From Eubacteriales bacterium (lineage in GTDB: Bacteria > Bacillota > Clostridia > Oscillospirales > CAG-382), in NCBI GenBank assembly GCA_045595785.1, contig JAZOBE010000048.1, forward strand, positions 6,009 to 70,008: 64,000 bases of DNA, written 5' to 3'. The notes beneath the pieces were generated by a model that was given only the letters and a program-made list of their open reading frames with translations, did not search any database and was not told the origin of the DNA. Made by a program: the position numbers and the translations under genes. Numbering within the stretch: the stretch's first letter is position 1; each line of letters opens with the position of its first letter. Of this stretch, positions 4,021 through 62,730 are shown piece by piece.

Positions 4021-4037
4021 GAATAAACCTATTTTTC

Positions 4038-4081
4038 ACAGTTAACAGTTAACGACAGAAGTTAACTGTTAACTGTTTTTT
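4038..4081 (+). terminator. Rho-independent terminator
   Basis: Perfect 16-bp stem ACAGTTAACAGTTAAC / GTTAACTGTTAACTGT plus TTTTT. Confidence 0.85.
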
Positions 4082-4143
4082 GTGGGGTGTCTTTTTTCGG
4101 GGTCCCCGCAAATGCCACCGGCATTTGTGGGGTGTCTTTTTTT
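4081..4143 (+). repeat. Family-A palindromic unit (1.5 copies)
   Basis: tgtggggtgtctttttt + cggggtccccgcaaatgccaccggcatttgtggggtgtcttttttt. Confidence 0.85.
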
Positions 4144-4609
4144 AATTTAGCATGGCTACACCGTAATTCAAGTATGCCGCGAAGGTTATCCACACCATAT
4201 ACGGCAAAAACAGTATTCCTGCCCACTTGCTTCTTACGAAAAATTCCCGTGTGAGCACAAAGCCTACCGCCCACATTGCAAGTATCCACAGGAAGGAAAA
4301 CAAAAAAGCGCGGAAGGTGAAAAACAAAAAGGGCCACACAAAGTTAAGCGCCAGCGTTGCGATATACAGCCCCTTCCACAGCTTTCCTTTGGGGCTTGGC
4401 GACATAAGCGTGAGATAGCAGGAAAAGCCCATAAGCGCATAAATGACAGTCCACACCAAGGGGAATATCCAACCGGGAGGGGACAGCGCCGGTTTTTCCA
4501 GTCCCTCGTACATACCGCCTCCTGCGGTAAGTATACCTGCAAGACCGCCGACGAACAAGGGAACAAACAGACAAAGCAACAAAATACCCAGTTTTTTCAA
4601 AACAAACAC
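4142..4609 (-). CDS. tspO: TspO/MBR family tryptophan-rich sensory protein
   Basis: 155 aa, 5 TM, W-rich motifs (PPGWIFPLVWTVIY, FVWPFLFF). Confidence 0.85.
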   Translation of the reverse strand: MFVLKKLGILLLCLFVPLFVGGLAGILTAGGGMYEGLEKPALSPPGWIFPLVWTVIYALMGFSCYLTLMSPSPKGKLWKGLYIATLALNFVWPFLFFTFRAFLFSFLWILAMWAVGFVLTREFFVRSKWAGILFLPYMVWITFAAYLNYGVAMLN

Positions 4610-5824: not shown

Positions 5825-6163
5825 CACAAAGCCACCGGAGCGAAAGTAACGTCCCCAAAGTGAGCGATGGTAAAACAAAGCAGAAGGCGGAAATTTCGAG
5901 CGTGATGTCCGCCCCAAAAACGCATAGCGTTTCTGGGGGACCCCGAGTAGTAATCTACGGCCAGCGAAGTAAAAACGCAAAAATAAAAGAAATCTGTTTA
6001 CAGATTTCTTCCTAAAAACACAAAACAAAAAAGCGAGAGATAAGCTTTGGTCTCTCGCTTTTCTTATTACGTTATTAAAACACTTTGCGTTTTTGTTCTG
6101 ATTTTTATCGGGGTCCCCGCAAATGCGACCAGCATTTGTGGGGTGATTTTTTTACCGAGCGAA
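5825..6163 (+). repeat. Composite intergenic element, copy 1
   Basis: Aligns along most of its length with 42256..42600. Order: ~130-nt module with a reversed family-A unit, hairpin GCGAGAGA..TCTCTCGC, atttcttattacgttat, aaacactttgcgt, a forward A unit, then ttttaccgagcg. Confidence 0.7.
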
Positions 6164-6502
6164 GATGTTACGGGTGGCGATTATATTCACACCGGTACCA
6201 CACACGTTCTCCACCACAACGTCGCCTATCTTTACGGGAGCAGTGAGTGTTACCTTGCGGAGCTGACGCATCGCATCGAATATTTTTTCCTTGGGGAGGG
6301 GGTTCTGGGAGCGAACGGGGCAACGGCATATCTCGCCGCCCTCAACACTAACGGTGGAGGTAAGCACTCTTACGGGTGCGGTAAGCTCGTTTTTGCCGTA
6401 AACTATGCCTCTGGGACAGTTGTTGCCCGTAACCTCAAAGGTTACCTCGTCTACGGTGAGGTGACAGCCCTTGGGGCAGGTTATACAGATTATCTTTGCC
6501 AT
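6152..6502 (-). CDS. DUF1667 domain protein
   Basis: MAKIICITCPKGCHL.. N-terminus typical of DUF1667. ATGA-type coupling to the upstream flavoprotein gene. Confidence 0.8.
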   Translation of the reverse strand: MAKIICITCPKGCHLTVDEVTFEVTGNNCPRGIVYGKNELTAPVRVLTSTVSVEGGEICRCPVRSQNPLPKEKIFDAMRQLRKVTLTAPVKIGDVVVENVCGTGVNIIATRNIFAR

Positions 6503-9262: not shown

Positions 9263-10576
9263 TTACTTCTTCTTTTTAGCAACAACTACAACTACAACAA
9301 CGATAGCTACTACTGCAACAACAGCAACTACGATGCCTACGATAAGGCCGGTGTTGGACTTTTCTTCCTTGTCGCCGGTAGAAGGAGCCTTGGACTCGTC
9401 TTCAGACTTGTCGTCTTCTGCGGGAACAGATTCATCCTTGGGCTCTTCGGAGGATTCATCTTCAACGGGCTCAGAGGATTCATCCTCGGGCTGAGAAGGT
9501 TCATCGGGAGTAGCAACGGGAACAGCGTAGTAAACTACTGCGCCGGTCTCAAAGGTCTGTTCATCAAAGTTGTATCCTGCGAAGGTTACGATGTCGCCTG
9601 CAACGAGAGCTGCAAGAGCGTCTCTGTTTGCGGCTGCGTCAGCGCTCTCACCGTGAACTGCGAGTGCGATGTCGCCTTCAGCTACGTCAGCAAAAGCAAA
9701 CTCATAGTCACCGTCTACACCCTTAACCTCTACTACGGAGTACTCACCCTCAACCTCGGTAGGTCTGAGAAGTACGCATGCGGACCATGCTACGTTGTAT
9801 GCGGAAAGGTTGGTAGGATCGGTGATGATGGTGTTGGAGTCGGTAACGATGGACTCGTTGAAGGGCACGTGCTTGATGTACTTTGCGCCTGCGGGAATCT
9901 CAACGATAGGCTCGATATCATCGATATTTACGGATTCTTCCTGGCTTACTTCTTCGTAATCGTCGTCGCCCTCTTCAGACTGAAGACCTGCGCCAACTTC
10001 GGTAAGACCTATCCATTCCCAGGAAACCTTATCCCAGCCCTGGCCGTTGGGACCCATGCTGAAGCAGATGGAAACGTACTTTGCATCTACAGCAGCGTTA
10101 AGACGGATAACAGTTTCAAGCTGGAAGGAAGGGTCGGCTACATTTACGATTTCGCCTTCCATGGTATAAACATCCTCGTGGAAAGCGTTACCATCTGCGG
10201 AAGTACCGATGATGAGAGAGTTTTCGTGGGGAAGACCGATCATTGCGTTAGCATATACGTACCAGTTGATATATACGGTATCGATGCTCTGAAGAGAATC
10301 AAGCTCAAAAACGATGGTAACTTCGGTAAGATCTTCGGAAGTGCAGTTCTTGTTCTGAATAAGAACTATGCCCTTCTTGTTGAAGTCGTTTGCAGCGGCA
10401 TCAGTTTCAGAAAGAATGGTGCCGTCATACAGAAGCTCAAGCTTATCGGATGCGCGAGGTGCTACGTTATCGCCCTTGATCTCAAGATTAACAACAGTTG
10501 CTTTTGCATCTGCAGGGATAGCAAAAAGCGCCACTACAAGAGTAAGGACAATGATAACACTTAAAAGTTTTTTCAT
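9263..10576 (-). CDS. Surface protein: signal peptide, discoidin/CBM-like N-domain, acidic S/E/D/P linker, C-terminal TM + KKKK
   Basis: 437-aa ORF, tandem paralog of 10717..12060. Confidence 0.75.
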   Translation of the reverse strand: MKKLLSVIIVLTLVVALFAIPADAKATVVNLEIKGDNVAPRASDKLELLYDGTILSETDAAANDFNKKGIVLIQNKNCTSEDLTEVTIVFELDSLQSIDTVYINWYVYANAMIGLPHENSLIIGTSADGNAFHEDVYTMEGEIVNVADPSFQLETVIRLNAAVDAKYVSICFSMGPNGQGWDKVSWEWIGLTEVGAGLQSEEGDDDYEEVSQEESVNIDDIEPIVEIPAGAKYIKHVPFNESIVTDSNTIITDPTNLSAYNVAWSACVLLRPTEVEGEYSVVEVKGVDGDYEFAFADVAEGDIALAVHGESADAAANRDALAALVAGDIVTFAGYNFDEQTFETGAVVYYAVPVATPDEPSQPEDESSEPVEDESSEEPKDESVPAEDDKSEDESKAPSTGDKEEKSNTGLIVGIVVAVVAVVAIVVVVVVVAKKKK

Positions 10577-10716: not shown

Positions 10717-12060
10717 TTATTTCTTCTTTTTGGCAACAACTACAACTACAACAACGATAGCTGCTACTGCAACAACGGCAACTGCGATGCCTACGATAAG
10801 ACCGGTGTTGGACTTTTCTTCCTTGTCGCCGGCAGAAGGAGCTTTGGACTCGTCCTCGGACTTGTCATCCTCTGCGGGAACAGATTCATCCTTAGGCTCT
10901 TCGGAGGACTCATCGTCCTTGGGCTCTTCGGAGGACTCATCGTCTGCGGGAGTGGAAACCTCATCCTCGGAAACGTCGACGTCGGGAGTAGCGGTGTTGT
11001 CTACAAAGTAAACTACTGCGCCTCTCTCAAAGGACTGCTCCTCAAAGTTATAGCCTGCAAAGGTAACGGTATCGCCCTCAACGAGAGCGTTAAGAGCAAG
11101 TCTGTTTGCCTTGGTGCCGTCAGTATCGTCATCACCGTGAACGGAAAGAACGATATCACCCTCTGCTGCGTCTGCAAACAGGAAGGTATCGTCACCGTTC
11201 ATCCACTGAACCGCAACTACAGTGTACTGACCCTCGGTCTCAGCAGGTCTGAGAAGTGCGCAAGAGGTCCACTTTACGTTGTAGTCCTGCATGGTAGCGG
11301 GATCGGTAATGATGGTGTAAGAACCGGTGGTGATAGACTTGTTGAAGGTTGCGTGCTTAAGACCTACGGAACCCTCGGGAATCTCAACGATAGGCTCGAT
11401 CTGGTCAAGAGGAGTGTTGTCTTCGCTTACTTCATCGTAACCGCCGAGAACCTCTTCAACCTGAAGTCCTGCGCCAACTTCGGTAAAGCCTACCCATTCC
11501 CACATGGGGCAGTACCAGCCGTCCTGACCGTGAGGGCCATACTCAAAGGAAACGGAAACATACTTTGCCTTTACGGTCTGACCGAGTCTGATAACAGTCT
11601 CAAGCTGGAAGGAGGAGTTGGGGTCGGTCTCACCCTCAAAATCATAAGCAGCGATCTCGGTATAAACGTCGCCATCCTGAGAATAACCGATGATAAGGTT
11701 ATTGTTGTGAGGCAAACCGATAATTGCGTTGTGATATACGTACCAGGTGATGTAAACCGAGTCGATATCCTGAAGGGTATCAAGCTCAAAATAAAGGGTT
11801 GCAACGGTGTTGTTTTCTGCGTCCATCATATTGGTATTCTGAACGAGAACTATGCCTTCCTTATCGAAGTTGTTTGCGGTAGCATTATCCTCGGAAAGGA
11901 TCTTGTTATCACAAAGAAGATTAACGTCTGCGCCTGCGCGAAGCTTAACGTTATCACCCTCAAACCAAACCTTTGTTACAGTTGCCTTAGCGTCTGCAGG
12001 AATGATAAGAAGTGCAACGACAAGAGAAAGAATGATAAGAACACTTAACAGTTTTTTCAT
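10717..12060 (-). CDS. Surface protein, paralog of 9263..10576
   Basis: 447 aa with the same architecture. The 3' ~200 nt are nearly identical to the paralog. Confidence 0.75.
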   Translation of the reverse strand: MKKLLSVLIILSLVVALLIIPADAKATVTKVWFEGDNVKLRAGADVNLLCDNKILSEDNATANNFDKEGIVLVQNTNMMDAENNTVATLYFELDTLQDIDSVYITWYVYHNAIIGLPHNNNLIIGYSQDGDVYTEIAAYDFEGETDPNSSFQLETVIRLGQTVKAKYVSVSFEYGPHGQDGWYCPMWEWVGFTEVGAGLQVEEVLGGYDEVSEDNTPLDQIEPIVEIPEGSVGLKHATFNKSITTGSYTIITDPATMQDYNVKWTSCALLRPAETEGQYTVVAVQWMNGDDTFLFADAAEGDIVLSVHGDDDTDGTKANRLALNALVEGDTVTFAGYNFEEQSFERGAVVYFVDNTATPDVDVSEDEVSTPADDESSEEPKDDESSEEPKDESVPAEDDKSEDESKAPSAGDKEEKSNTGLIVGIAVAVVAVAAIVVVVVVVAKKKK

Positions 12061-22526: not shown

Positions 22527-23732
22527 ATGTATATTTTGGTTGTTAACGCAGGAAGCTCTTCTCTTAAGTATCAGCTTTTTGATATGGAGGGTGAGAAGCT
22601 GCTGGCAAAGGGTAATGCAGACCGTATCGGTATTGACGGCGTGCTGGAGCATCAGGTTATCGGCAAGGAAAAAACCGCTACTCCCACTCCCTTCCCCACC
22701 CATGCAGACGCTATAAAGAAGGTTCTGGAGGCTATCGTTGATAAGGATACCGGCTGTATTGAGAGTATTGATATGATCGGTGCTGTAGGTCACCGCGTAG
22801 TCCACGGTGGTCCTTGGCTCACCAAGCCCACTCTGGTTACCGAGCAGTCAAAGGCTGACCTGCGCAAGTGTCTTTCCATAGCTCCTCTCCACACCAAGGG
22901 TCACCTTGAGGGTATTCAGGGCTGTGAAGAGGTTATGCCCAATGTACCTCAGGTTCTGGTTATAGATACCGCGTTCCATTCCACCATGCCCGCAAAGGCA
23001 TATACTTATCCTATTGCATACGAGGTTGCTGAGAAGCACAATATCCGCCGTTACGGATTCCACGGCACCTCTCACAGATACGTTTCTGCTATTGCCAACG
23101 AATATCTCGGCAAAGAGGACAGCAAGATTGTTACCTGCCATATCGGTAACGGCTCCTCTATTTCCGCTGTAAGAAACGGCAAGTGCGTTGATACCAGTAT
23201 GGGCTTTACCCCTCTTGACGGTATTATTATGGGCTCCCGTTGCGGCGCTATCGACCCTGCTATCGTTCCCTATATTATGGAAGCAGAGGACATTCCCGCT
23301 TCCGAAATGGGCAACTGGATGAACAAAAAGTGCGGTCTGCTGGGCGTTTCCGGCGTATCCTCCGATATGCGTAACCTCCGCAAGGCGCAGGCTGAGGGTA
23401 ATGAGAGAGCAAACCTTGCTTCCGATATTCTCACTTACGAAATTAAGAAATTCATCGGCTCTTATGCGGCTGCTATGAACGGTCTGGACTGTCTGGTATT
23501 CACCGCAGGTATCGGTGAGAACGACGCAAGAGTAAGAAGCGAGGTTTGCGCTGATATGGAATTCCTCGGCATTAAGATAGACGAGGAAAAGAACCTTAAC
23601 TACCGTGACCTGCCTCTCCCCGGCGATATTTCCGCACCGGACAGCAAGGTTAAGGTTTGCGTTATCGCTACCAACGAAGAATTGGTTATTGCAAGAGACA
23701 CCGCAAATATAGTTGAAGGTCTTAACAAATAA
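22527..23732 (+). CDS. ackA: Acetate kinase
   Basis: ILVVNAGSSSLKYQLF N-terminus and GFHGTSH. Start at 22527 after AGGAG. Confidence 0.95.
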   Translation: MYILVVNAGSSSLKYQLFDMEGEKLLAKGNADRIGIDGVLEHQVIGKEKTATPTPFPTHADAIKKVLEAIVDKDTGCIESIDMIGAVGHRVVHGGPWLTKPTLVTEQSKADLRKCLSIAPLHTKGHLEGIQGCEEVMPNVPQVLVIDTAFHSTMPAKAYTYPIAYEVAEKHNIRRYGFHGTSHRYVSAIANEYLGKEDSKIVTCHIGNGSSISAVRNGKCVDTSMGFTPLDGIIMGSRCGAIDPAIVPYIMEAEDIPASEMGNWMNKKCGLLGVSGVSSDMRNLRKAQAEGNERANLASDILTYEIKKFIGSYAAAMNGLDCLVFTAGIGENDARVRSEVCADMEFLGIKIDEEKNLNYRDLPLPGDISAPDSKVKVCVIATNEELVIARDTANIVEGLNK

Positions 23733-24361
23733 TGCTTGCAACGCTGGTATTTGTTTTTGAGATAATCGGTACCGTGGCATTTGCCATTTCCGGTGCCATT
23801 ACCGGTCTTAAAAAGAAAATGGATGTTTTTGGCGTGGTCATTCTTGCACTGGTAACCGCAGTTGGCGGCGGTGCAATACGAGATATAGTGCTTGGCAACA
23901 CACCGCCCATGACCTTCCGCAGCCCCGTTTACGCGCTGGTTGCTATTGCAACGGGTATACTTGTGTTTATCCCCGCAATACGCAGGCTGCCCGGCAAAAA
24001 CCCAAAGCTGTTTGATATATTTTTGCTTGTTACGGACTCTGTGGGTCTGGGCATATTCACGGTAATGGGTATACGCACCGCCATTAACGCAGGACAAAAG
24101 GAAAACCTGTTTTTGCTTGTGTTCGTGGGAGTGGTTACAGGTGTAGGCGGCGGCTTGCTTCGTGATATGATGGCAGGCAACACGCCTTACATATTCGTTA
24201 AGCATATTTACGCTTCCGCTTCACTTGTGGGCGCGGTCATTTGTGTGGGAATGTGGAATTTGACGGGAGAAACCGCGGCAATGGTAGTTTCCGCCGCAGT
24301 TATAATAACCATCCGCTTCCTGGCGGCACATTTTAAGTGGAGTCTGCCAAAAGCAGAATAA
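23732..24361 (+). CDS. Trimeric intracellular cation channel (UPF0126/YadS) family membrane protein
   Basis: Two repeats of the G-GGG-RD motif (VGGGAIRD, VGGGLLRD). TAATG overlap with ackA. Confidence 0.8.
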   Translation: MLATLVFVFEIIGTVAFAISGAITGLKKKMDVFGVVILALVTAVGGGAIRDIVLGNTPPMTFRSPVYALVAIATGILVFIPAIRRLPGKNPKLFDIFLLVTDSVGLGIFTVMGIRTAINAGQKENLFLLVFVGVVTGVGGGLLRDMMAGNTPYIFVKHIYASASLVGAVICVGMWNLTGETAAMVVSAAVIITIRFLAAHFKWSLPKAE

Positions 24362-24365
24362 GATA

Positions 24366-24660
24366 ATACCCCAAGAAACCTGCGGTTTCTCGGGGACCCC
24401 GAAACTAAATACCCCACAAAAGGTTTTCAGATAAGTAGGGGCGATTCACGAATCGCCCGTTACAGACAATATATTTCAATTGAAAACGCTTTCGCGGGGA
24501 CCCCGAAAAAAACACACCCCTAAAATCCTTGCGGATTTTTGGGGACCCCGAAACAAAAAATACCCCCTAAAATGCTAACGCATTTTTGGGGGCCCCGAAA
24601 CAAAAAACACCCCACAAATCTTCGATTTGCGGGGACCCCAAAGCAAAACACCCCCAGAAA
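24366..24660 (-). repeat. Array of family-A palindromic units (about 5, one disrupted)
   Basis: Units of the form acacccc-[stem-loop-stem]-ggggaccccgaaa with different inner stems. The second unit is interrupted at 24431-24480 by another hairpin. Confidence 0.85.
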
Positions 24661-24670
24661 TAATAACATC

Positions 24671-24706
24671 AAAGCAAAAAGCACGGAATTATCCGTGCTT
24701 TTTTTG
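24671..24706. terminator. Bidirectional rho-independent terminator
   Basis: GCACGGA-atta-TCCGTGC flanked by an A-run and a T-run. Confidence 0.8.
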
Positions 24707-24728
24707 TGTCCTGCTTGAAATAAAAATC

Positions 24729-25274
24729 TTACTTAAAGTCCTTGGGTATTTTGCTCATCGGTTTTTCCAGCAACATCACAATAATTGCGCAGACGATGCC
24801 GTTGATAAGCACGTAAGGCGCGTTATAGACGATGGAATAAATAAAAGGAGACGCGGTGGTGATACCGTAAACGGTTTCGGATGCGGTGATGGCGTAAATG
24901 GTAATACCGCTTACAAAATGCACGAGAAACCGTACTCCCGTGGCAACAGCCGTGCCGGGAAGAGCTTTTTTGAAAAAGCCTGCGGTGCCGACAGCGGCAT
25001 AAGCCAAAACGTAATCGAACATAACCGAGGGGAATCCCCAGCCGATACCGCCCCAGACGATAGCTTTAAGCAGTCCGAAAACAGCGCCGGTAGCAATTCC
25101 CCACACGCCGCCGCGGCGGAGCGCAAGAATTACCAGAGGAACCATAAGTATATCCAGTCCTCCCCCCTGCATCCAGGCAAAATCCAGCTCCAGCGGACAA
25201 AGTGCCAGCCCGAGCGCTACGGTTATGCCGCATTCGCAGAGTATGAGTAATTTTTCTTTTGCTTTTTTGTTCAT
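24729..25274 (-). CDS. thiT: Energy-coupling-factor thiamine transporter S component
   Basis: 181-aa polytopic protein directly downstream of a TPP riboswitch. Confidence 0.75.
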   Translation of the reverse strand: MNKKAKEKLLILCECGITVALGLALCPLELDFAWMQGGGLDILMVPLVILALRRGGVWGIATGAVFGLLKAIVWGGIGWGFPSVMFDYVLAYAAVGTAGFFKKALPGTAVATGVRFLVHFVSGITIYAITASETVYGITTASPFIYSIVYNAPYVLINGIVCAIIVMLLEKPMSKIPKDFK

Positions 25275-42255: not shown

Positions 42256-42600
42256 TAACAGCCAATCAAAGTAATATCCTGAAGTAAGCGATGGTAAAAA
42301 GCTGCAGAAAAGGTCTTTTACGAGCGTGATGTCCACCCCAAAAACGCATAGCGTTTCTGGGGACCCCGAGTAGTAATCTACGGCCAGCGAAGTAAAAACG
42401 TAAAATAAAAATACGAGAGATACACTATGATCTCTCGCATTTCTTATTACGTTATAAACACTTTGCGTCAAACACTTTGCGTCTGTGGGGTGATTCTTAT
42501 CGGGGTCCCCTCAAATGCGACCGGCATTTGTGGGGTGATTTTTATCGGGGTCCCCTCAAATGCGACCGGCATTTGTGGGGTGATTTTTTTACCGAGCGCC
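42256..42600 (+). repeat. Composite intergenic element, copy 2
   Basis: Collinear with 5825..6163. Contains one reversed A unit (42335-42370) and 2.5 forward 45-nt A units (42484-42590), and ends in ttttaccgagcg. Confidence 0.75.
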
Positions 42601-48664: not shown

Positions 48665-49310
48665 TTTGGGACGCGCTCCTAATGGCTGTTTAATTAATGG
48701 CGACACGGTACGTAGACCTTGCGGCTTACGGTCAAGTAGGATTTCCCCACGGTCTCCTTCTCGTCGCCGATGAAGGGGTTCCCCATTAAAGACCGAGGCG
48801 GGGCATTGCTGCTTCCGCGACTTGATTGCCTATGAGTCCGCACTGTAATCCGCACCGTGCCCGTGCGTTTGTAATTTGCCGCGACGACAGTCTAGGCGTT
48901 TTCCGCCATAGCACAAAACATTTTCTTATCTTCTTTTGCAGACATGATTTCAAACGCGATTTATTCGAGGCTCGGTAGCTAATCTCCCCCCGACATGAAC
49001 GTTATCCGCCATGACCCACTCAAAGCCGGCTACATCTATCCACAGCATCTGTAATGGTCGTACCGCGTGATAGGTCTAATCTTAATCACGTAACCCCTTT
49101 CTCCAAACAAAAGTCCGCCACGTAGAAAAAGCCTCAAAGGAAAGTGGGGTAGCCGCCCCATGCCATTGGGGTGCGCCCACAGTCCATTCTCCCAGCATCC
49201 ACCCTGAACTGGGCGTACAAAGCAAACACCAGGAGCTTCATCGATTTGCCGTTTGACGTATTTTTAGGCACGCCTTCAAAAACGCCGTGCTAACTAGAAT
49301 ACTGCGCCAT
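48665..49310 (-). ncRNA. ole: Candidate OLE (ornate, large, extremophilic) RNA
   Basis: About 645 nt with no credible ORF on either strand. GC-rich with many local hairpins, including a GCAA tetraloop stem. A promoter lies upstream. Co-oriented and contiguous with oapA-dxs-tlyA-nadK-argR-recN. Confidence 0.65.
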
Positions 49311-49319
49311 CGCATATTC

Positions 49320-49347
49320 ATTATATCACATTTTTGCATAAATTCAA
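49320..49347 (-). promoter_or_regulatory. Candidate sigma-A promoter driving the OLE-like RNA
   Basis: Minus strand reads TTGAAT, 16 nt, TGaTATAAT. Confidence 0.5.
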
Positions 49348-49484
49348 GGGGTTTTTGTGAATTTTATGCATATTTTATACATCTGATGTTTGTTTATACT
49401 ATATATCGTAACCTTTTTTCGCATAACCACCGTATATCCGCATCCCCCTCCGACAAAACAATATTTTGTAAAAAAAAGAAAACA

Positions 49485-49702
49485 AAAAAGCGAGAGATAA
49501 ACTATAATCTCTCGCATTTCTAATTACGTCATTATTCTTTTTGCGTTTTTGGTCTGCTTTTTATCGGGGTCCCCGCAAATCGAAGATTTGTGGGGTGATT
49601 TTTATCGGGGTCCCCGCAAATGCAACGGCATTTGTGGGGTGATTTTTATCGGGGTCCCCGCAAATGCGACCGGCATTTGTGGGGTGATTCTTTTACCGAG
49701 CG
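49485..49702 (+). repeat. Composite intergenic element, truncated copy 3 with three family-A units
   Basis: Hairpin gcgagagataaactataatctctcgc, then atttctaattacgtcat, then units of 41, 44 and ~47 nt with loops cgaagat / gcaacggc / gcgaccggc, then ttttaccgagcg. Confidence 0.8.
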
Positions 49703-49703
49703 A

Positions 49704-50435
49704 CTACCGAGCGGAAAGTATCCTCTCTACTTCGGCTAAATCTTCTTCCGTATTCACTCCCGCAAGCTCGGTCTCATCGGGAAGGATATACGCCTGCACC
49801 TTGCCGCCGGATGCGATCATATGCTTGGGCACGTCGGTGAGATAATATTCGCCGGTGACGGGGCTGGGTGTGATACGGGCAAGGGACTCAAACAGCTTTA
49901 CCGAATCAAACATATATATTCCGCCGTTAAGCTCGGGAATTTTTTTCTGCTCGTCGGTGGCGTCCTTGTGCTCAACTATTCCTGCCACGTCCCCCGAAAC
50001 GGTGCGTATGATATGACCGAAGGGAGGTATATTCCCCTTTGCCACAAAGGTGAGAATGGTGCAGTCTGCGCCCGTTTCCTTGTGATACTCCGCCAGCGCG
50101 CGGACGCTTTCCCTGCGGAGCAGAGGCATATCGCCGTTGATGACGAGAATGGGTCCGTCATAGCCCTTGAAGCAATGGGCGGCGCACATAACCGCATGGC
50201 CCGTGCCCTTTTGCTCCTCCTGAAAAGCGTAGGTGTATTCGGGATACGCATCCATGACCACCTGCTTTTGATAGCCAACAAGTATAACTTTATCTTCTTT
50301 TTTAACTATATCCGTATAATCAAGTACGTATCCGAGAAGGGGAACGCCCTTTGCTTTGCGCATTACCTTGGGTATTTGAGTAATTTCACTGCCCAGACGC
50401 TTTCCTTTTCCGCCTGCGAGAATAAGTGCTTTCAT
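49704..50435 (-). CDS. Sugar-phosphate nucleotidyltransferase (GlmU N-terminal-like)
   Basis: MKALILAGGKGKRLG start and VINGDMPL motif. Start moved to 50435. Confidence 0.75.
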   Translation of the reverse strand: MKALILAGGKGKRLGSEITQIPKVMRKAKGVPLLGYVLDYTDIVKKEDKVILVGYQKQVVMDAYPEYTYAFQEEQKGTGHAVMCAAHCFKGYDGPILVINGDMPLLRRESVRALAEYHKETGADCTILTFVAKGNIPPFGHIIRTVSGDVAGIVEHKDATDEQKKIPELNGGIYMFDSVKLFESLARITPSPVTGEYYLTDVPKHMIASGGKVQAYILPDETELAGVNTEEDLAEVERILSAR

Positions 50436-50523
50436 TTTTGGCAAAAACCCTTTCATAGACATATATTCAATAACAGTATATATTGGTTTTTGAACAAAGT
50501 CAACACATTCGGAGGGATTTTTA

Positions 50524-51546
50524 ATGGCAGAATATTTTGCCGGTGTCAACACCGAAAAAGGATTTATGGGGTTTCCGAAGGAATATTTCGGTTCTCTTTC
50601 AAGGCTGTATATTATCAAAGGCACGGCGGGAAGCGGAAAATCCACGCTGATGAAGCGGATTGCAGACCAATGCGAAAAGCTGGGGATTGAAACGGACAGG
50701 GTCTACTGCTCGTCCGACCCGAATTCCCTTGACGGGGTGATACTTCCCCGTAACGGCACTGCCGTTGCAGACGGCACCGCCCCTCATCTGCTTGAGCCCA
50801 TAACCCCCGTAGCAAAAGAGATACTTGTGGACACGGGCAGGTTTATGGACGAAAAAAAGCTTGATAAAGAAGGGATAATTTATTACTCCCGAAAAAAGAA
50901 GGAATATTATTCCCGTGCATATTCCTTTATACTATGCGGAGTGGAGGCAAGCCGTGTGTGCAGTGATATCGTGTTTGCCGCCATGGACAAAGCAAAGCTT
51001 TATTCCTATGGAGAACGGTTTTTCAAAAGGCATATTGAAAGCAAGGTCTTTTCAAAGGCGGTGCATACGCGGATAGCCGCCGCGTTTACGGGAAGAGGGT
51101 TACGGGTGCTTGACCCGTTCCCCCAAGCAGAGCGTGTGTTTACTCTGCGGGGCGGACGGGGAAACGAGCATATATTTATTAAGCAGTTATACGATATTGC
51201 GTTGGATGCAGGTGAGGAAGCATGTGTTTCCCCCGATGCAACCGATTCCCAAAGGCTTAACGGTATATATTTCCCCATTCGGAGAGTATACGTTACCTCC
51301 CTGCCCACGGAAAGAGGAACCGAAATTAATATGGCGCGTTTTTTTGTTACCGCCGAATACACAAAGCAAAAGCAGGAGATAAAGGAAATTAGCGAAACAG
51401 CGAAAAAAGCCTATTCTCTGGCGGAAAAGCAGTTGTTTTCTGCGGCGGCGTGCCACGGAGAGCTGGAAAAGCGGTACGTTTCCACAATGGATTTTGAGCC
51501 CTTGGACCAAGAATACCGCCGTATTATTAAAGGAATGACGGAATAA
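50524..51546 (+). CDS. Uncharacterised P-loop ATPase
   Basis: Walker A GTAGSGKST, 340 aa, RBS GGAGGG. Confidence 0.6.
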   Translation: MAEYFAGVNTEKGFMGFPKEYFGSLSRLYIIKGTAGSGKSTLMKRIADQCEKLGIETDRVYCSSDPNSLDGVILPRNGTAVADGTAPHLLEPITPVAKEILVDTGRFMDEKKLDKEGIIYYSRKKKEYYSRAYSFILCGVEASRVCSDIVFAAMDKAKLYSYGERFFKRHIESKVFSKAVHTRIAAAFTGRGLRVLDPFPQAERVFTLRGGRGNEHIFIKQLYDIALDAGEEACVSPDATDSQRLNGIYFPIRRVYVTSLPTERGTEINMARFFVTAEYTKQKQEIKEISETAKKAYSLAEKQLFSAAACHGELEKRYVSTMDFEPLDQEYRRIIKGMTE

Positions 51547-52912: not shown

Positions 52913-54298
52913 TTATTTCTTTTTCTTTGCAACGATAACAACCACAACGATAATTGCTACAACTGCAACTACGCCTACAACGATACCGATAATAAGACCG
53001 GTTGCGGGAACGTTGGTCTTTTCATCGCTGGTGGGCTCGGAAGAGTCGTCTTCAGAGGTTGCGGGAGCGGAAGATTCGTCAGCAGGTTCGGAAGAATCGT
53101 CTGCAGGTTCGGAAGAATCGTCTGCGGGAGTGGAAGTCTCGGGCTCGGAAACCTCGGGCTCTTCGGTGGGAACGTACTCGGAATCAAATTCAAAGGTATT
53201 GAAGGTGATCACTGCGCCGTCGCAAGAGAATACGGTGAACTGGGTGATCTCAACAAGGCCTTCCTCGTTAGCGCCTACCAGCTCAACGAGCTGTTCATAG
53301 GAGATAGCGCCCTTGTAGGAGCCTGCAAGCAGGTCGCCGGTGCCGGATTCGATATTATCGGTGCTCATAAAGGAGTGGAGGTAATATTCGCCGCCATTGA
53401 TACGGAGGCTGGTCTTACCAACGTCAAAGGAAAGGTCATATACAAGATAAGTGCCTTCGCCGATGAGGAGAGGAGTGGGAAGAACTGCGTCTGCCCAAGG
53501 CCAGGTGCCTGCAACGGAGCCGCCGACAACGGTAACACCATCGGTGGTTTCGATAGTGATCTCAGCTTCGTTTACGGGAGTCTTTGCCCAGATGGATTTG
53601 CAGTTATCAAAGATGTCAAACTTGCCCTCAAGTGCTTCGGGCTTTGCTGCGGGACGGCTTGCGCCAAGACCCTCAACTGTGTCGGAAGAACCAACGTAGA
53701 AGCGGTAGATAACAAGAGAAGAGCCAACCTCGCCTGCAAGAGCGTATGTAATGTTATCGATACGATGCATACCGTCATCAAAGGTGCCTGCATCGCCCTT
53801 GCCCTTAACGATATATTCGCCAAGAGCCCAGATGCCGTAACCGGTACCGCTTGCCTTGCTGTAGGTAGCGTAATCTGCGCTTTCCATAGAGGAAAGGTAC
53901 AGATCTGCAAGTGCGCCGGAAGCAGCCTTGTCTTTACGGGTGTAGTGAGCTACGGTGCCGCCGTTGCCGTGGAGAGTTGCGCCGTCAACAGAAGCATAAT
54001 CGAATACAACGAAGCCCTCGCCATCCTTAACGTTAAAGGAATCACCTGCATAAACGGTGGTGCCTTCAGCAAAAACAACGGTAACGGAGGGAGCGGATCC
54101 GGTAATGGTAAAGGTAACGGAGCCGTCGTCGTTATAGGTCAGTTCGCAATCGGTAGCGGTAACTTTACCGTTAACGTCGTTTGCGGCGGGAAGAAGGTTG
54201 TGGATGATGTTGTCTTCCTCTGCAGCGGATACGCTGAACGCGAATACGCTTGTGAGAACGAGAAGAAGCACAACGGAGAGAGAAATCAGCTTTTTCAT
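52913..54298 (-). CDS. Surface protein with acidic SEP(A/T)DDSSEP repeats and a C-terminal VPATG + TM + KKKK tail
   Basis: Signal peptide. The C-terminal anchor is nearly the same as in the 9263 and 10717 proteins. Confidence 0.75.
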   Translation of the reverse strand: MKKLISLSVVLLLVLTSVFAFSVSAAEEDNIIHNLLPAANDVNGKVTATDCELTYNDDGSVTFTITGSAPSVTVVFAEGTTVYAGDSFNVKDGEGFVVFDYASVDGATLHGNGGTVAHYTRKDKAASGALADLYLSSMESADYATYSKASGTGYGIWALGEYIVKGKGDAGTFDDGMHRIDNITYALAGEVGSSLVIYRFYVGSSDTVEGLGASRPAAKPEALEGKFDIFDNCKSIWAKTPVNEAEITIETTDGVTVVGGSVAGTWPWADAVLPTPLLIGEGTYLVYDLSFDVGKTSLRINGGEYYLHSFMSTDNIESGTGDLLAGSYKGAISYEQLVELVGANEEGLVEITQFTVFSCDGAVITFNTFEFDSEYVPTEEPEVSEPETSTPADDSSEPADDSSEPADESSAPATSEDDSSEPTSDEKTNVPATGLIIGIVVGVVAVVAIIVVVVIVAKKKK

Positions 54299-59444: not shown

Positions 59445-59999
59445 ATGAACGTAATTGCCGAAACCGTATATTTTACCCCCGAAAACGCACGGTTTTATCT
59501 TACCGCAGGGGGACTTGTGGGGCTTAATGCGTTTATTCCCCCCGTGGGAAAGGACGATCTTGCCGATGAAAACGCAGATCTGTCTCCCGTTTGGCAGGAT
59601 CTTGGCAGAGTGTTCCTGCACAGAGCGTTCCCTTACGATATGCCGGATATGTTTATTTCCGTTCAGGACAAGGACGGAAAGGAATACGGTATGGTAAAAA
59701 GCATTGCGGATTTTCCCGAGGATATCCGTAATATTCTTAAGGGCGAGCTTAACCGAAAGTATTTCACCCCCGTTATTACAAAAATACACACCGTATCTGC
59801 CAAGTTCGGATACACCTATTGGGAAGCGGACAGCGATATGGGAAAGCTTTCTTTTTCCATGCACGATACCTACCGCAATATAGCAAAAGTCGGCGAAAAC
59901 CGCCTCATTCTCACCGATGTGGACGGTAACCGCTATGAGATAAAGGACTATATGGCGCTGGACAGAAAAAGCTTCAGAAAGCTTGAACTGTATTTATAA
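59445..59999 (+). CDS. DUF1854 domain protein
   Basis: About 185-aa soluble ORF between two ABC exporter genes, recalled as the DUF1854 family. ATG at 59445 follows GAGGAG. Confidence 0.6.
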   Translation: MNVIAETVYFTPENARFYLTAGGLVGLNAFIPPVGKDDLADENADLSPVWQDLGRVFLHRAFPYDMPDMFISVQDKDGKEYGMVKSIADFPEDIRNILKGELNRKYFTPVITKIHTVSAKFGYTYWEADSDMGKLSFSMHDTYRNIAKVGENRLILTDVDGNRYEIKDYMALDRKSFRKLELYL

Positions 60000-60000
60000 T

Positions 60001-60099
60001 ACACCCCTAAAATCCTTGCGGATTTTTGGGGACCCCGAAAAAAACACACCCCTAAAATCCTTACGGATTTTTGGGGACCCCGAAAAAAAACACACCCCC
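60001..60099 (-). repeat. Family-A palindromic units (2.5 copies) inside the ABC operon
   Basis: acacccctaaaatcc-ttgc/ttac-ggatttttggggaccccgaaaaaaa, twice. The first unit is identical to the one at 24515-24552. Confidence 0.85.
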
Positions 60100-62290: not shown

Positions 62291-62396
62291 CGGAGCGGCT
62301 AATTTAACGCAGAACAAAAACGCGAAAGATACAGTAAAATGTATCGAAAACCGTAGGGGACGGCGTCCTCGACGTCCCGTTTCAAAAAATGAGGTA

Positions 62397-62436: not shown

Positions 62437-62618
62437 CGTTTTTTAGACGTTTTACGCGGAGGGCAGTACCTTTGTACAGCTCCTCGCGCGTAAAAACGCC
62501 TTCTGCGTCAAATTTTCTCGCTCCTCGCAAAAATCAGACTTTTGGTTATTATAGACATTATTTTCGTGCGAACAGTTTGCGGAAGGGGCAAGCCCCTTCC
62601 CTACATTATCGAAACCTT

Positions 62619-62730
62619 GTGTTTGTGGGGTGTTTTTTCTCGGGGTCCCTGCGAATGCGACTGCATTCGTGGGGTGTTTTTTCTCGGGGTCCCCGCAAAT
62701 CGCAGATTTGTGGGGTGTTTTCTCATTGAC
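62619..62730 (+). repeat. Family-A palindromic units (2.5 copies)
   Basis: Units have inner stems cgaatgc-gac-tgcattcg and caaatc-gca-gatttg between constant cggggtccc(c/t)g and gtggggtg flanks. Confidence 0.85.

Follow-up and report, generated by a model that had tools for sequence, protein, structure and literature searches.

The window, by which we mean the whole stretch of 64,000 nucleotides of a Eubacteriales contig that was analysed, contains a family of small palindromic repeats, family A. The nine loci of the family hold 17 complete copies of the unit, a truncated one and several half-units. The unit is about 45 bases long and is arranged in the order TC-GGGG-T-CCCC, a 7-bp A/T-rich hairpin, GGGG-TG and a T-run. 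The GGGG, CCCC and GGGG tracts are invariant in 42-44 of 44 units, and the inner stem is variable. With genes called by a codon-usage caller, all the units of the window are intergenic (17 in 64 kb). Nine of them lie on one strand and eight on the other, and no replication-strand bias was found in the window, where the GC skew is uniformly weak and positive. A covariance model derived from the units recovers 17 full units (E <= 1e-6), none of which falls outside the nine loci listed by an earlier, sequence-only reading of this DNA. The pattern search proposed there, run on the window as GGGGWCCCCN{15,35}GGGG, gives 18 matches against 0.10 expected in shuffled sequence, and every one of the nine hairpin variants quoted there is present.

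The units occur singly or in arrays, all of which are head-to-tail. The arrays are heterogeneous. TRF reports arrays with a period of 44-47 at 24496-24655, 42484-42588, 49558-49689, 60001-60098 and 62625-62721. A leader half-unit, consisting of GTGGGGTG and a linker, is found where arrays begin. The first of these half-units, TGTGGGGTGTCTTTTTT (4081-4097, plus strand), is one copy of a perfect 17-nt direct repeat, the second copy of which is at 4126-4142; the two copies bracket the core of the unit at 4095-4142 (plus strand; hairpin CAAATGC/CACC/GGCATTTG; covariance model score 60.6 bits, E 4.7e-12). The T-run of this unit continues into the TAA that ends the TspO gene (4142-4609, minus strand). 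The unit AGAAACGC/TAT/GCGTTTTT at 5902-5948 (minus strand, 37.2 bits) is located inside a repeat, D15, whose second copy carries the unit at 42326-42371 (minus strand, 45.1 bits). The T-run of the unit at 6106-6153 (plus strand, 68.1 bits) is followed by TTACCGAGCG, which provides the stop of the DUF1667 gene (6152-6502, minus strand).

The largest group, at 24366-24660, was read earlier as an array of about five units. It has four complete units and one truncated unit, all on the minus strand, and is broken by 80 nt of other repeat sequence. The unit at 24359-24404 (AGAAACC/GCA/GGTTTCT, 58.5 bits) begins 7 nt past the TAA of a glycine-transporter-family gene (23732-24361). The truncated unit, read from the sequence at 24480-24506, has GGGGTCCCC and a short GCGAAAGCG hairpin without the closing GGGG. 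It is followed by the units at 24507-24553 (AAAATCC/GCAA/GGATTTT, 69.8 bits), in which the fifth stem pair is A.A, at 24554-24600 (AAAATGC/GTTA/GCATTTT, core variant GGGGCCCCC, 58.1 bits) and at 24602-24660 (CAAATC/GAA/GATTTG, 45.7 bits), the last with its own leader half-unit at 24644-24660.

The array at 42484-42590 (plus strand) is comprised of a leader and two identical units with T.T as the fifth pair (49.6 and 62.7 bits; 98% matches by TRF), and its T-run and TTACCGAGCG overlap the recN stop at 42589. At 49562-49694 (plus strand; 48.6, 64.7 and 49.4 bits), three units, each with a hairpin of its own, are situated between a terminator module, D10, and the stop of a nucleotidyl-transferase gene (49704-50645, minus strand). 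Two units and a leader at 59994-60099 (minus strand; 53.6 and 69.7 bits) begin 4 nt past the TAA of a DUF1854 gene within an ABC-transporter gene cluster and are antisense to the terminator-like orientation. The last array (62619-62725, plus strand), a leader and two units with CGAATGC and CAAATC hairpins (61.5 and 40.5 bits), the first with the core GGGGTCCCT, precedes the promoter-like region of a gene of the class II tRNA-synthetase family. D10 itself, identified as a repeat family and by the terminator scan at 6013-6081, contains the bidirectional terminator hairpin GCGAGAGAT..ATCTCTCGC; with further copies at 42393-42461 and 49470-49538, it precedes three arrays. The end motif of the composite module, TTACCGAGCG followed by CTACCGAGCG, is duplicated at 49693-49713, as read from the sequence, and is present in single copies at 6152-6161 and 42589-42598. 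Its reverse complement, CGCTCGGTAA, reads Ala-Arg-stop. The Ala-Arg tail of RecN might come from the element; the RecN proteins of several relatives end in Ala-Arg too, but in locus L145 the motif is just outside a stop codon.

Rfam matches only OLE and tRNA in the whole window, nothing meaningful at 24300-24760 even at E <= 10, and only tRNAs in 14 metagenome loci. The unit core was not found in a relevant context in the literature searched, and the supplementary files of PMC3733652 are without the unit. With neither an Rfam nor a literature match, the view that these structured intergenic palindromes form a dense and unnamed family is borne out.

The fold of the unit was examined over 44 units. 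Base pairing holds in 96% of the cells; shuffles give 82%, and sliding the partner columns leaves 61% or less. Five stem pairs have changed on both sides, in 62 cells, which confirms the compensatory changes claimed from sequence alone, and RNAalifold independently predicts the same hairpin with an imperfect stem of 12 bp. The accompanying claim that the inner stem is always self-complementary does not hold for the fifth pair from the base, which does not covary: 35 of the 39 distinct Firmicute units have G.T, A.A, T.T or C.A there, and 66 of the 112 metagenome units have G.T. This pair is kept non-Watson-Crick. Alternative folds through the GGGG-T-CCCC mini-palindrome had also been suggested; within a single strand GGGG-T-CCCC would have to close on a loop of 1 nt and therefore cannot fold back on itself, and in every predicted fold the partner of CCCC is the GGGG downstream. 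Selection maintains a single-strand hairpin through compensatory change, and RNA and single-stranded DNA are both compatible with this.

The unit core with the same unforced features is found in at least eight ruminant-gut Clostridia MAG species and in high-GC soil contigs. The eight MAGs are RGIG1645, RGIG321, RGIG8528, RGIG9940, RGIG6331, SRP315200_co1_264 and two MAGScoT bins. Metagenomes returned more than 120 loci with GC from 0.38 to 0.72, and 126 of the 166 pattern matches have an inner segment that folds into a hairpin, which the pattern did not require. One of the high-GC soil contigs, L136, belongs to Dormibacterota. The family is neither lineage-specific nor a local oddity; it is cross-phylum and includes at least Bacillota and Dormibacterota. 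Identical variants occur in unrelated contexts and different species; for example, hairpin AAAAATCCGCAGGATTTTA is common to L001, L002 and L010, and GAGAAACCGCAGGTTTCTT to the window and L016. The loop of one unit houses another, nested unit in L019, L033, L041, L115 and L128. The high-GC units have no U-run and are placed in operons, in 5' leaders and between tRNA genes. A metagenome pattern demanding two adjacent units with an 8-nt linker had no matches. Carriage by plasmids or phages was rejected, since BLAST against collections of both found no match to the unit and only 3 viral contigs matched the pattern.

Orthologous sites are occupied in certain genomes and empty in others. The 3' flank of recN has two units in the window and in L143/L144, is empty in L145/L146 and L138 despite the common D10 module, and has no units in L137, L140, L141 and L147. 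The array past the glycine-transporter gene consists of 1, 2, 4 and 4+1 units in four species. In L136, two units flank rpsM-rpoA, and ten strain-level relatives have none in 20 kb. Direct target duplications of 17-27 nt bracket recent insertions in L136 (both sites), L129 (21 nt), L083 and L068, and the window has its perfect 17-nt repeat around the unit core at 4095-4142. Flanking duplications are enriched (8 of 103 units versus about 2 of 308 controls); a clear one accompanies only about 5% of single units. One insertion junction is sharp, 3-8 nt past the closing GGGG. The other is variable, and the extra sequence there differs from copy to copy. The flanking repeat of the Firmicute arrays always includes GGGGTG itself. 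The empty and filled sites could alternatively have originated by deletion between direct repeats, and much of the array structure is explained by local tandem duplication, for which no transposition is needed.

Units typically begin 3-10 nt past a stop codon, and those of high-GC operons reach to 1-2 nt before the next start codon. At the orthologous glycine-transporter site the first CCCC lies 6-7 nt past the TAA in all four species. The sequence-only reading had placed most copies at gene 3' ends, in the orientation that puts a T-run behind the hairpin. This orientation proved uninformative: both orientations satisfy it at convergent junctions, and the units of tandem gene pairs are 4 co-directional versus 3 opposite. 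The T-run end instead abuts the stop of a gene on the other strand, at 4-20 nt in 12 of 22 arrays; the end opposite the T-run is never less than 42 nt from a gene in these 22 arrays.

We consider it somewhat probable that family A represents, within a widespread group of non-autonomous small mobile hairpin elements, the branch that is A/T-rich and forms arrays; its units are in this lineage also predicted to act as one-directional terminators. We could not find a description of such an element family in the literature searched. The minimal element, about 37 nt in total, would be (T)C-GGGG-T-CCCC, a stem of 7-9 bp closed by a loop of 3-5 nt, and GGGG-TG(R). A long staggered break or a template switch may give rise to the target duplication, and an insertion in the last or first few codons would then leave an intact gene copy on one side. 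With gene ends regenerated in this manner, the units would abut stop and start codons. Arrays may grow by new insertions into the constant GGGGTG-linker modules or by unequal exchange between them, which would result in n hairpins between n+1 constant modules with locus-specific linkers. On the GGGGTCCCC-first strand every unit is predicted to form the 12-bp hairpin followed by a U-run, a putative stop for transcription heading towards the abutted gene. The opposite strand would carry a stop-codon-proximal hairpin in a 3' UTR or between cistrons. The target duplications disfavour the classical RAYT/IS200-type Y1 mechanism. Pfam finds no transposase, integrase, reverse transcriptase or Cas gene among about 56 ORFs of the window, and neither the window (Pfam) nor about 1 Mb of loci searched by regex and phmmer showed a RAYT gene next to units. 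The one Y1 gene of that 1 Mb, in L088, was rejected as a RAYT partner candidate, as it is flanked by a different palindrome.

A bolder proposal, which we put forward only tentatively, is that all GGGGTCCCC-hairpin-GGGGTG units constitute an unrecognised cross-phylum class of mobile elements, characterized by long variable duplications (17-27 nt), one sharp end, coupled mini-ORFs and one-way terminators. The insertion signature would then match no known bacterial small-repeat mechanism, and target-primed copying or replication template switching would be suggested over RAYT-type transposition. Since the duplication restores gene ends, the exact positions of stop and start codons could be occupied by such elements; in operons this would yield mini-ORFs coupled in translation, and in A/T-rich lineages terminators that work in one direction.

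Alternatively, the units might be host-selected intrinsic terminators or insulators, that is, duplicated Rho-independent terminators kept against convergent or antisense transcription entering the neighbour gene, with a similarity due to constraint and to descent through local duplication, and not to mobility. The terminator scanner does call the units, which have a 12-bp stem with a G+C-rich base and a U-run (predicted hairpins of -16.5 to -21.7 kcal/mol). Four of about six or seven convergent junctions in the window hold units, those at 59994-60085 within the ABC-transporter cluster face the non-terminating way, and an ordinary terminator of a relative, CCCCGCGAAGC..GCTTCGCGGGG with a T-run past recN in L141, looks alike. 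However, tandem gene pairs display no orientation preference, and strong terminators already adjoin the units (D10 and the hairpins at 4036-4080 and 24672-24712). The high-GC copies, which have no U-run and are found inside operons, in leaders and between tRNA genes, also argue against this origin, as do the identical variants at unrelated loci of different species. The target duplications and the filled versus empty sites point to insertion. Taken together, this explanation is unlikely.

An action at the mRNA level is improbable as well. It would involve the CCCC-first strand, in which a post-stop hairpin might block 3'-to-5' decay, slow ribosome release or, in operons, couple translation by hiding a GGGGA Shine-Dalgarno-like sequence as long as the upstream ribosome has not opened the stem. 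The first CCCC is located 4-10 nt past a stop codon in 10 of 22 Firmicute arrays, with the constant distance at the glycine-transporter site of four species noted above. At the high-GC loci, 7 units fit TGA-TCA-CCCC..GGGGACCCC-G-ATG exactly between two genes and none does so in the other orientation; among co-directional gene pairs, 14 units are CCCC-first versus 4. In L136 (rplQ) and L068 (a SufU-like gene), the unit is traversed by a mini-ORF whose stop overlaps the new start codon. Liang, Rudd and Deutscher reportedly found in 2015 that expression in E. coli is lowered by a REP within about 15 nt of the stop codon. The better stem, with G.U at pair 5, is nevertheless that of the opposite strand, the mRNA-sense pair being an A.C or U.U mismatch. 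Many copies are found upstream of genes in either orientation or in non-coding stretches (of the 105 high-GC units scored, 43 lack any coding signal to either side), up to five units per array are hard to justify, and a long target duplication would leave the same stop/start abutment.

The palindrome GGGGTCCCC (9 bp) and the G4/C4 tracts might instead act as double-stranded DNA, binding a nucleoid protein or topoisomerase or forming a cruciform or G-quadruplex, with the covariation a by-product of palindrome maintenance; the invariant tracts beside a variable stem and a core conserved across phyla would agree with this, but both the compensatory inner-stem changes and pair 5, with its conserved and strand-specific G.T, speak for a single-stranded form, no candidate binding protein was found, and G-tract loops of 11 and about 26 nt would be poorly spaced for a quadruplex, which makes this very improbable. 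BIMEs do bind IHF and gyrase.

Several other identities were rejected. The variable parts are 17-21-nt palindromes from a small set recurring between loci and species, and the window has no cas domain, which excludes a CRISPR array. A coding sequence or conserved peptide through the unit is incompatible with frames that differ among the copies and with compensatory changes, and a SECIS or read-through signal after UGA with variable spacing and frame and with downstream genes that have their own starts. Where copies are next to a tRNA 3' end (L030, L067, L110 and L126), ARAGORN finds the adjacent tRNA-Thr only and no tRNA- or tmRNA-like gene. All-against-all BLASTP of 4209 ORFs of the loci identified only generic families and thus no conserved neighbouring protein. 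The genes bracketed by units in L136 and L120 are rpsM-rpsK-rpsD-rpoA and pantothenate kinase, not a transposon.

Small palindromic repeats are usually seen as lineage-specific, REPs in proteobacteria and BOX and RUP in pneumococci being examples. An invariant core, a stem imperfection and loop types common to gut Clostridia and soil Dormibacterota are outside this picture, and such sharing would imply that a partner enzyme is widespread or that the units have spread horizontally more than once. Should the long duplications be confirmed, the insertion mechanism would be new for bacterial miniature elements and would explain how they live in tightly packed operons without gene breakage. In practice, the arrays break metagenome assemblies and confuse the prediction of terminators and small ORFs. 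They could be used as strain markers, and they may shape antisense and convergent transcription in little-studied rumen bacteria.

Family A resembles several known systems in part. Mycobacterial interspersed repetitive units (MIRUs) are head-to-tail units of about 45-50 nt in intergenic or intercistronic positions, and small reading frames run through them with stops and starts overlapping the neighbour genes, as in family A. To our knowledge, however, MIRUs are not hairpin units with G4/C4 flanks and are confined to mycobacteria. With respect to MITE features, the sole inverted repeats of the unit are the hairpin arms, and the duplications are long and variable. Clostridia-lineage units are like intrinsic terminators on the GGGGTCCCC-first strand only, having a G+C-rich stem base, a 3-5-nt loop and a U-run; but intrinsic terminators are normally not a dispersed sequence family with invariant flanks, and family A has an extra 5' GGGGT and high-GC relatives without the U-run. 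The GC clusters of yeast mitochondria are likewise small mobile palindromes rich in G+C that are scattered through A+T-rich intergenic DNA, and one of them contains TCGGGGTCCCCG (PMC4478555). They are organellar and eukaryotic, and their likeness to family A is no evidence of homology.

The REP/BIME-type system proposed by the sequence-only reading fits in that the units are dispersed, clustered and gained or lost between relatives; the lack of inverted pairs and of a GTAG/CGTC tag and the duplications of 17-27 nt do not fit. REPs, BIMEs and REPINs are short imperfect palindromes, extragenic, multicopy and clustered, as are the units of family A, and both have a hairpin with compensatory changes and a conserved stem imperfection. 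They also share a conserved non-palindromic tag on one side and proposed side effects on termination and mRNA stability. Insertion of the IS200/IS605 type produces no target-site duplication, and the 17-27-nt duplications of family A are unlike the Y1-type insertion of the REP/RAYT system. No RAYT gene was found next to any copy in the window and the 1 Mb of loci. The copies in BIMEs and REPINs are inverted or alternating, whereas family A clusters are head-to-tail, and the core of family A, unlike REP, spans at least two phyla. The tag of REPs is a tetranucleotide, GTAG or CGTC, that is conserved at one end (PMC3733652), as against TCGGGGT / GGGGTG in family A; GTAG was seen only in separate hairpins that coexist in the same genomes.

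The TIRYT or subclass 2.1 TnpA_REP genes, present in 14.9% of strains and with no known REP partner, are flanked by inverted repeats that share GGGG[AT][CG]A[CG] (PMC3733652; PMC6006769). No gene of this subclass was seen in any locus examined. The Firmicute units often have GGGGTGT or GGGGTGAT instead, and a Y1 enzyme is not expected to give target duplications. In many high-GC copies the right flank, GGGGTGA[CG], agrees with the consensus, a likeness of an 8-nt motif only, and family A is a concrete candidate, open to test, for the partner of the orphan subclass 2.1 Y1 proteins.

Family A is real, a dense family of structured repeats, and no prior description of it was found. The pattern GGGGWCCCCN{15,35}GGGG occurs 18 times in the window, where dinucleotide-preserving shuffles predict 0.10. 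A covariance model, R1, was built from 44 units (the window and 15 loci of related genomes) and run over the whole window without filters. It detected 17 full units at E <= 1e-6, each at a locus listed in the sequence-only reading, and no match above noise beyond these; an additional truncated unit lies at ~24480-24506. On the G-first strand the unit reads GGGGTCCCC-hairpin-GGGGTG-T-run, and C-first is the complement; the G-first strand is plus for nine units and minus for eight. Five of the loci are head-to-tail arrays with a period of 44-47 (Tandem Repeats Finder), and a repeat search of the window places all the arrays in a few repeat families. Most arrays open with a 'leader' half-unit (GTGGGGTG and linker), so that n hairpins lie between n+1 constant modules. 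The earlier description was accurate, and the unit, which it did not recognise as a named family, has no matching family in Rfam; the papers searched hold no relevant match to the core sequence. Plasmid and phage collections gave no family A match, and only three viral contigs matched the unit pattern.

The three G4/C4 tracts are invariant in the 44-unit alignment, and the TC preceding the first GGGG and the TG following the last are nearly so. The inner stem, of 7 bp, joins an A-rich 5' arm to a 3' arm rich in T. Standard pairs fill 96% of the cells of the 12-pair helix, compared with 82% after shuffling of the 3' partners and no more than 61% after sliding them. Both sides change at five pairs (62 cells), in keeping with the compensatory changes noted in the sequence-only reading, and RNAalifold gives the same helix. 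The alternative fold proposed there, in which CCCC pairs with the upstream GGGG, would need a 1-nt loop, which rules it out sterically within one strand, and it is absent from the predicted folds. The hairpin is constrained, and at pair 5, the first one inward of the four G-C pairs, the conserved feature is an imperfection: the 39 distinct Firmicute units have G.T there in 17 cases, A.A in 15, T.T in two, C.A in one and A-T in only four. The predicted RNA folds of G-first units have energies of -15.6 to -21.7 kcal/mol, and a U-run comes next; a consensus scanner classes the units whose fifth position is paired as terminators. The two C-first folds computed have energies of -17.3 and -15.1 kcal/mol; they contain an internal mismatch and lack a U-run.

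Gene context in the Firmicute lineage was tabulated for 22 arrays, using a codon-usage gene caller checked with Pfam. Most arrays lie at convergent gene junctions. The proposal that copies at gene 3' ends are oriented so that a T-run follows the hairpin does not hold: at convergent junctions it is uninformative, because a co-oriented gene lies upstream of the array in either orientation, and of the arrays in tandem gene pairs four run with transcription and three against it. The asymmetry between the two ends of the array, by contrast, is strongly non-random. The T-run end lies 4-20 nt from the stop codon of an opposite-strand gene in 12 of the 22 arrays (4-10 nt in 10), often continuing into the TTA of that gene, whereas the GGGGTCCCC end is always at least 42 nt from any gene. 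In the mRNA of the abutted gene, the stop codon is followed by a few A residues and these by (T)CACCCC-hairpin-GGGGACCCC. Next to an orthologous glycine-transporter gene the first CCCC stands 6-7 nt past the TAA in all four species compared, with arrays of 1, 2, 4 and 4+1 units. In this A/T-rich lineage each unit is predicted to serve as a one-directional terminator facing the abutted gene.

The window RecN is closest to proteins labelled as MAG 'Clostridia bacterium'. An OLE RNA (48681-49326, minus strand; 380 bits, full length) stands in its usual neighbourhood of a CNNM-like membrane protein, dxs, an FtsJ/TlyA-type methyltransferase, NAD kinase, ArgR and RecN. On either side of the block stands a family A array, upstream at 49562-49694 and after recN at 42484-42590. 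The window recN is followed by two identical units, a half-unit and the D10 terminator module. Two units occupy the same place in L143 and L144 (RecN 86% identical to that of the window). The flank holds D10 in the same orientation and no unit in L145 and L146 (72%), D10 alone in L138 (78%), an ordinary terminator in L137, L141 and L147 (78%, 57% and 74%), and no terminator, with the next gene directly after, in L140 (67%). Throughout 70.9 kb of recN-centred sequence from relatives, units occur in L143 and L144 only, and both of their units carry CGAATGC/GCATTCG where the window has CAAATGC/GCATTTG, a compensatory pair change. Arrays are therefore gained and lost over short evolutionary distances and evolve in concert. 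Array neighbours are identical at 42498/42543 and in three other loci (L004, L005, L011), and of quite different hairpin types at 49562-49694 and in L001, L006 and L016; the same types are found again in other species. Linkers are more similar within an array than between arrays.

The window also contains other repeats. D10, a bidirectional terminator hairpin (GCGAGAGAT..ATCTCTCGC, then TTTCTTATTACG..ACTTTGCGT), precedes three of them (6013-6081, 42393-42461 and 49470-49538) and also follows recN in the unit-free L138 and L145. Two composite modules of ~300 bp (5858-6161 and 42282-42598) have rough two-fold symmetry, consisting of a C-first unit, a D10 terminator and a G-first unit between inverted-repeat-like ends, AGCGATGGTAAAA and TTTTACCGAGCG. 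The motif CGCTCGGTAA (6152-6161, 42589-42598 and 49693-49713) forms the 'Ala-Arg-stop' of unrelated DUF1667, RecN and nucleotidyl transferase genes; it is tandemly duplicated at 49693-49713 and lies just outside the TGA stop in L145. The palindrome GTAGTAATCTAC (GTAG...CTAC; 5947-5958 and 42370-42381) lies 2 nt from a family A unit, within the repeat D15, and has similar copies in L143 and L145. Hairpins of classical REP form, GTAG-tagged and with varying stems, occur at 24435-24458 (plus), 62353-62378 (plus) and 62581-62604 (minus), and their GTAGGGGCGATTCACGAATCGCCC is identical in L003, L015 and L143, a sign that these genomes may harbour a true REP/RAYT system alongside family A. Two adjacent paralogous genes (9263-10576 and 10717-12060) and a third (52913-54298) that shares a 110-nt repeat, D7, at its end, all on the minus strand, contain CAA/ACAACT and 21-27-nt in-frame repeats and have no Pfam match.

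The reach across phyla and the insertion signature are the unexpected aspects of family A. When one genome of each species was scanned for a pair of adjacent units, 16 loci were found, 15 of them from eight uncultured Clostridia, Oscillospiraceae or Eubacteriales MAGs, mostly of ruminant guts; none of the 16 overlaps the window outside repeats. A metagenome scan with a single-unit pattern, fixing only the flanks and two A-T pairs, found more than 120 loci, most of those listed having 55-72% G+C. In 126 of the 166 matches listed, the inner segment forms at least five more contiguous pairs, none of them demanded by the pattern. Other unforced features common to these and the Firmicute units are G.T at pair 5 (66 of 112 units among the matches listed), a modal 7-bp inner stem, GAA and GCA loops and an A following GGGGTG. 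The most frequent high-GC variant among the matches listed is GCGAAATC-GAA-GATTTCGT, from which GCAAATC-GAA-GATTTGT of the window differs by one inserted base pair. One locus, L136, belongs to Dormibacterota (its RpoA shares 96-97% identity with proteins that carry the label Candidatus Dormibacteraeota or Chloroflexi MAGs), and family A is therefore cross-phylum.

Coding strands of the high-GC contigs were called by third-position G+C. Between co-directional genes, 14 units are C-first and four G-first. Seven units exactly fill an intercistronic gap, TGA-TCA-CCCC..GGGGACCCC-G-ATG (or GTG, or TTG), and no high-GC unit has such a fit in the opposite orientation; the same arrangement is read in L034 between dppC-like and dppD-like genes. 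Further copies are in leaders, between tRNA genes or in non-coding stretches. The unit lacks a U-run in these high-GC settings and cannot be a terminator there. In several low-GC contigs (L030, L067, L110, L126, also L078) the unit is part of a ~170-nt module that has a tRNA-Thr gene and its terminator on one side and, on the other, the 3' end of that tRNA once more (GGTCGCCGGTTCGAATCCGGCCA..TCCA), a layout resembling the junction of an integrated element.

Insertion is seen in L136, which has two units near rpoA; ten strain-level relatives (RpoA 95% identical) have none in the 20 kb around that gene, and alignment gives clean filled/empty pairs at both sites. At the rpmJ-rpsM junction the sequence is ..AAGCAGCGACAGGGGTAG-GGGACTAG-ATG when empty and, when filled, AAGCAGAGGCAAGGATGA, 30 nt, the unit, TGGAAACACG, then AGCAGAGGCAGGGCTAA-AGGACTAA-ATG: an insert of ~82 nt with a ~17-nt direct duplication at both ends, rpmJ stop codon included. 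At the rpoA-rplQ junction the original start of rplQ (ATGCGCCATCAG) persists and now begins a 31-codon frame crossing the C-first unit; its TGA overlaps a new TTG start, behind which the opening codons of L17 (Met-Arg-His-Gln) occur a second time. Direct repeats scoring at least 11 flank 8 of 103 single units, against ~2 of 308 controls with mismatched flanks at a score of at least 10; one of the eight is a local tandem repeat (L125) and two lie within larger repeats (L030, L112). L129, L083 and L068 are clean cases. In L129 a 21-nt repeat brackets exactly C-GGGGTCCCC..GGGG-TGG, which sets the minimal element at 37 nt. The flanking repeat is ~19-25 nt in L083 and ~18-27 nt in L068, where it duplicates the 5' end of a SufU-like gene and a mini-ORF crosses the unit, its TGA overlapping the new ATG. 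The mini-ORFs of L136 and L068 have ~27-31 codons and a TTGA or ATGA stop/start overlap. In the clean cases the duplicate begins 3-8 nt past the closing GGGG, and on the other side 0-45 nt of unrelated sequence separates it from the unit. The core of the window unit at 4095-4142 lies between perfect 17-nt repeats (4081-4097 and 4126-4142). At five loci (L019, L033, L041, L115 and L128) a unit lies within the loop of another. The outer stem is GGCGAC/GTCGC with the loop AGGTCTTC; the nested pair recurs as a composite, and in L041 the outer unit is also present intact elsewhere in the locus.

The best-supported reading is that family A is a non-autonomous mobile hairpin element. Its mobility is well supported: copies of identical sequence are dispersed, relatives differ in whether a site is filled or empty, and insertions have long target duplications and one sharp junction, one of them being nested in another unit. 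The target duplication would restore the ends of genes and so account for units that abut stop and start codons, and arrays may grow when units insert into the constant modules or when these modules recombine with each other. That G.T at pair 5 is conserved and strand-specific points to a unit recognised as a single strand. In the densely packed high-GC contexts the mRNA more often corresponds to the strand that has the A.C mismatch, and we lean towards DNA rather than RNA as the recognised form.

REP elements are the nearest kind to family A, and the earlier assignment to a REP/BIME-type system was right in spirit but wrong in detail. Three defining features of REPs failed: the GTAG or CGTC tag is absent from the units, and neither inverted pairing nor insertion without duplication holds. 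The window has no RAYT/Y1 gene, and the only one in ~1 Mb of loci, in L088, is unrelated. This RAYT-like Y1 transposase gene (~825-1510, with HUH and Tyr motifs) has an inverted palindrome of its own, TTGCAAGGACGAACCTTGCAA, on its flanks, and ~850 nt from the gene, after an unrelated one, there is a family A-type unit. The Y1 subclass TIRYT, or 2.1, is widespread and without known REPs, and its flanking inverted repeats have GGGG[AT][CG]A[CG] in common (Di Nocera et al. PMC3733652; Quentin et al. PMC6006769). The GGGGTGA[CG] of family A fits this consensus, a resemblance of 8 nt only, and the duplications argue against a Y1 mechanism. In their intercistronic, stop/start-overlapping behaviour, family A units are like the mycobacterial MIRUs.
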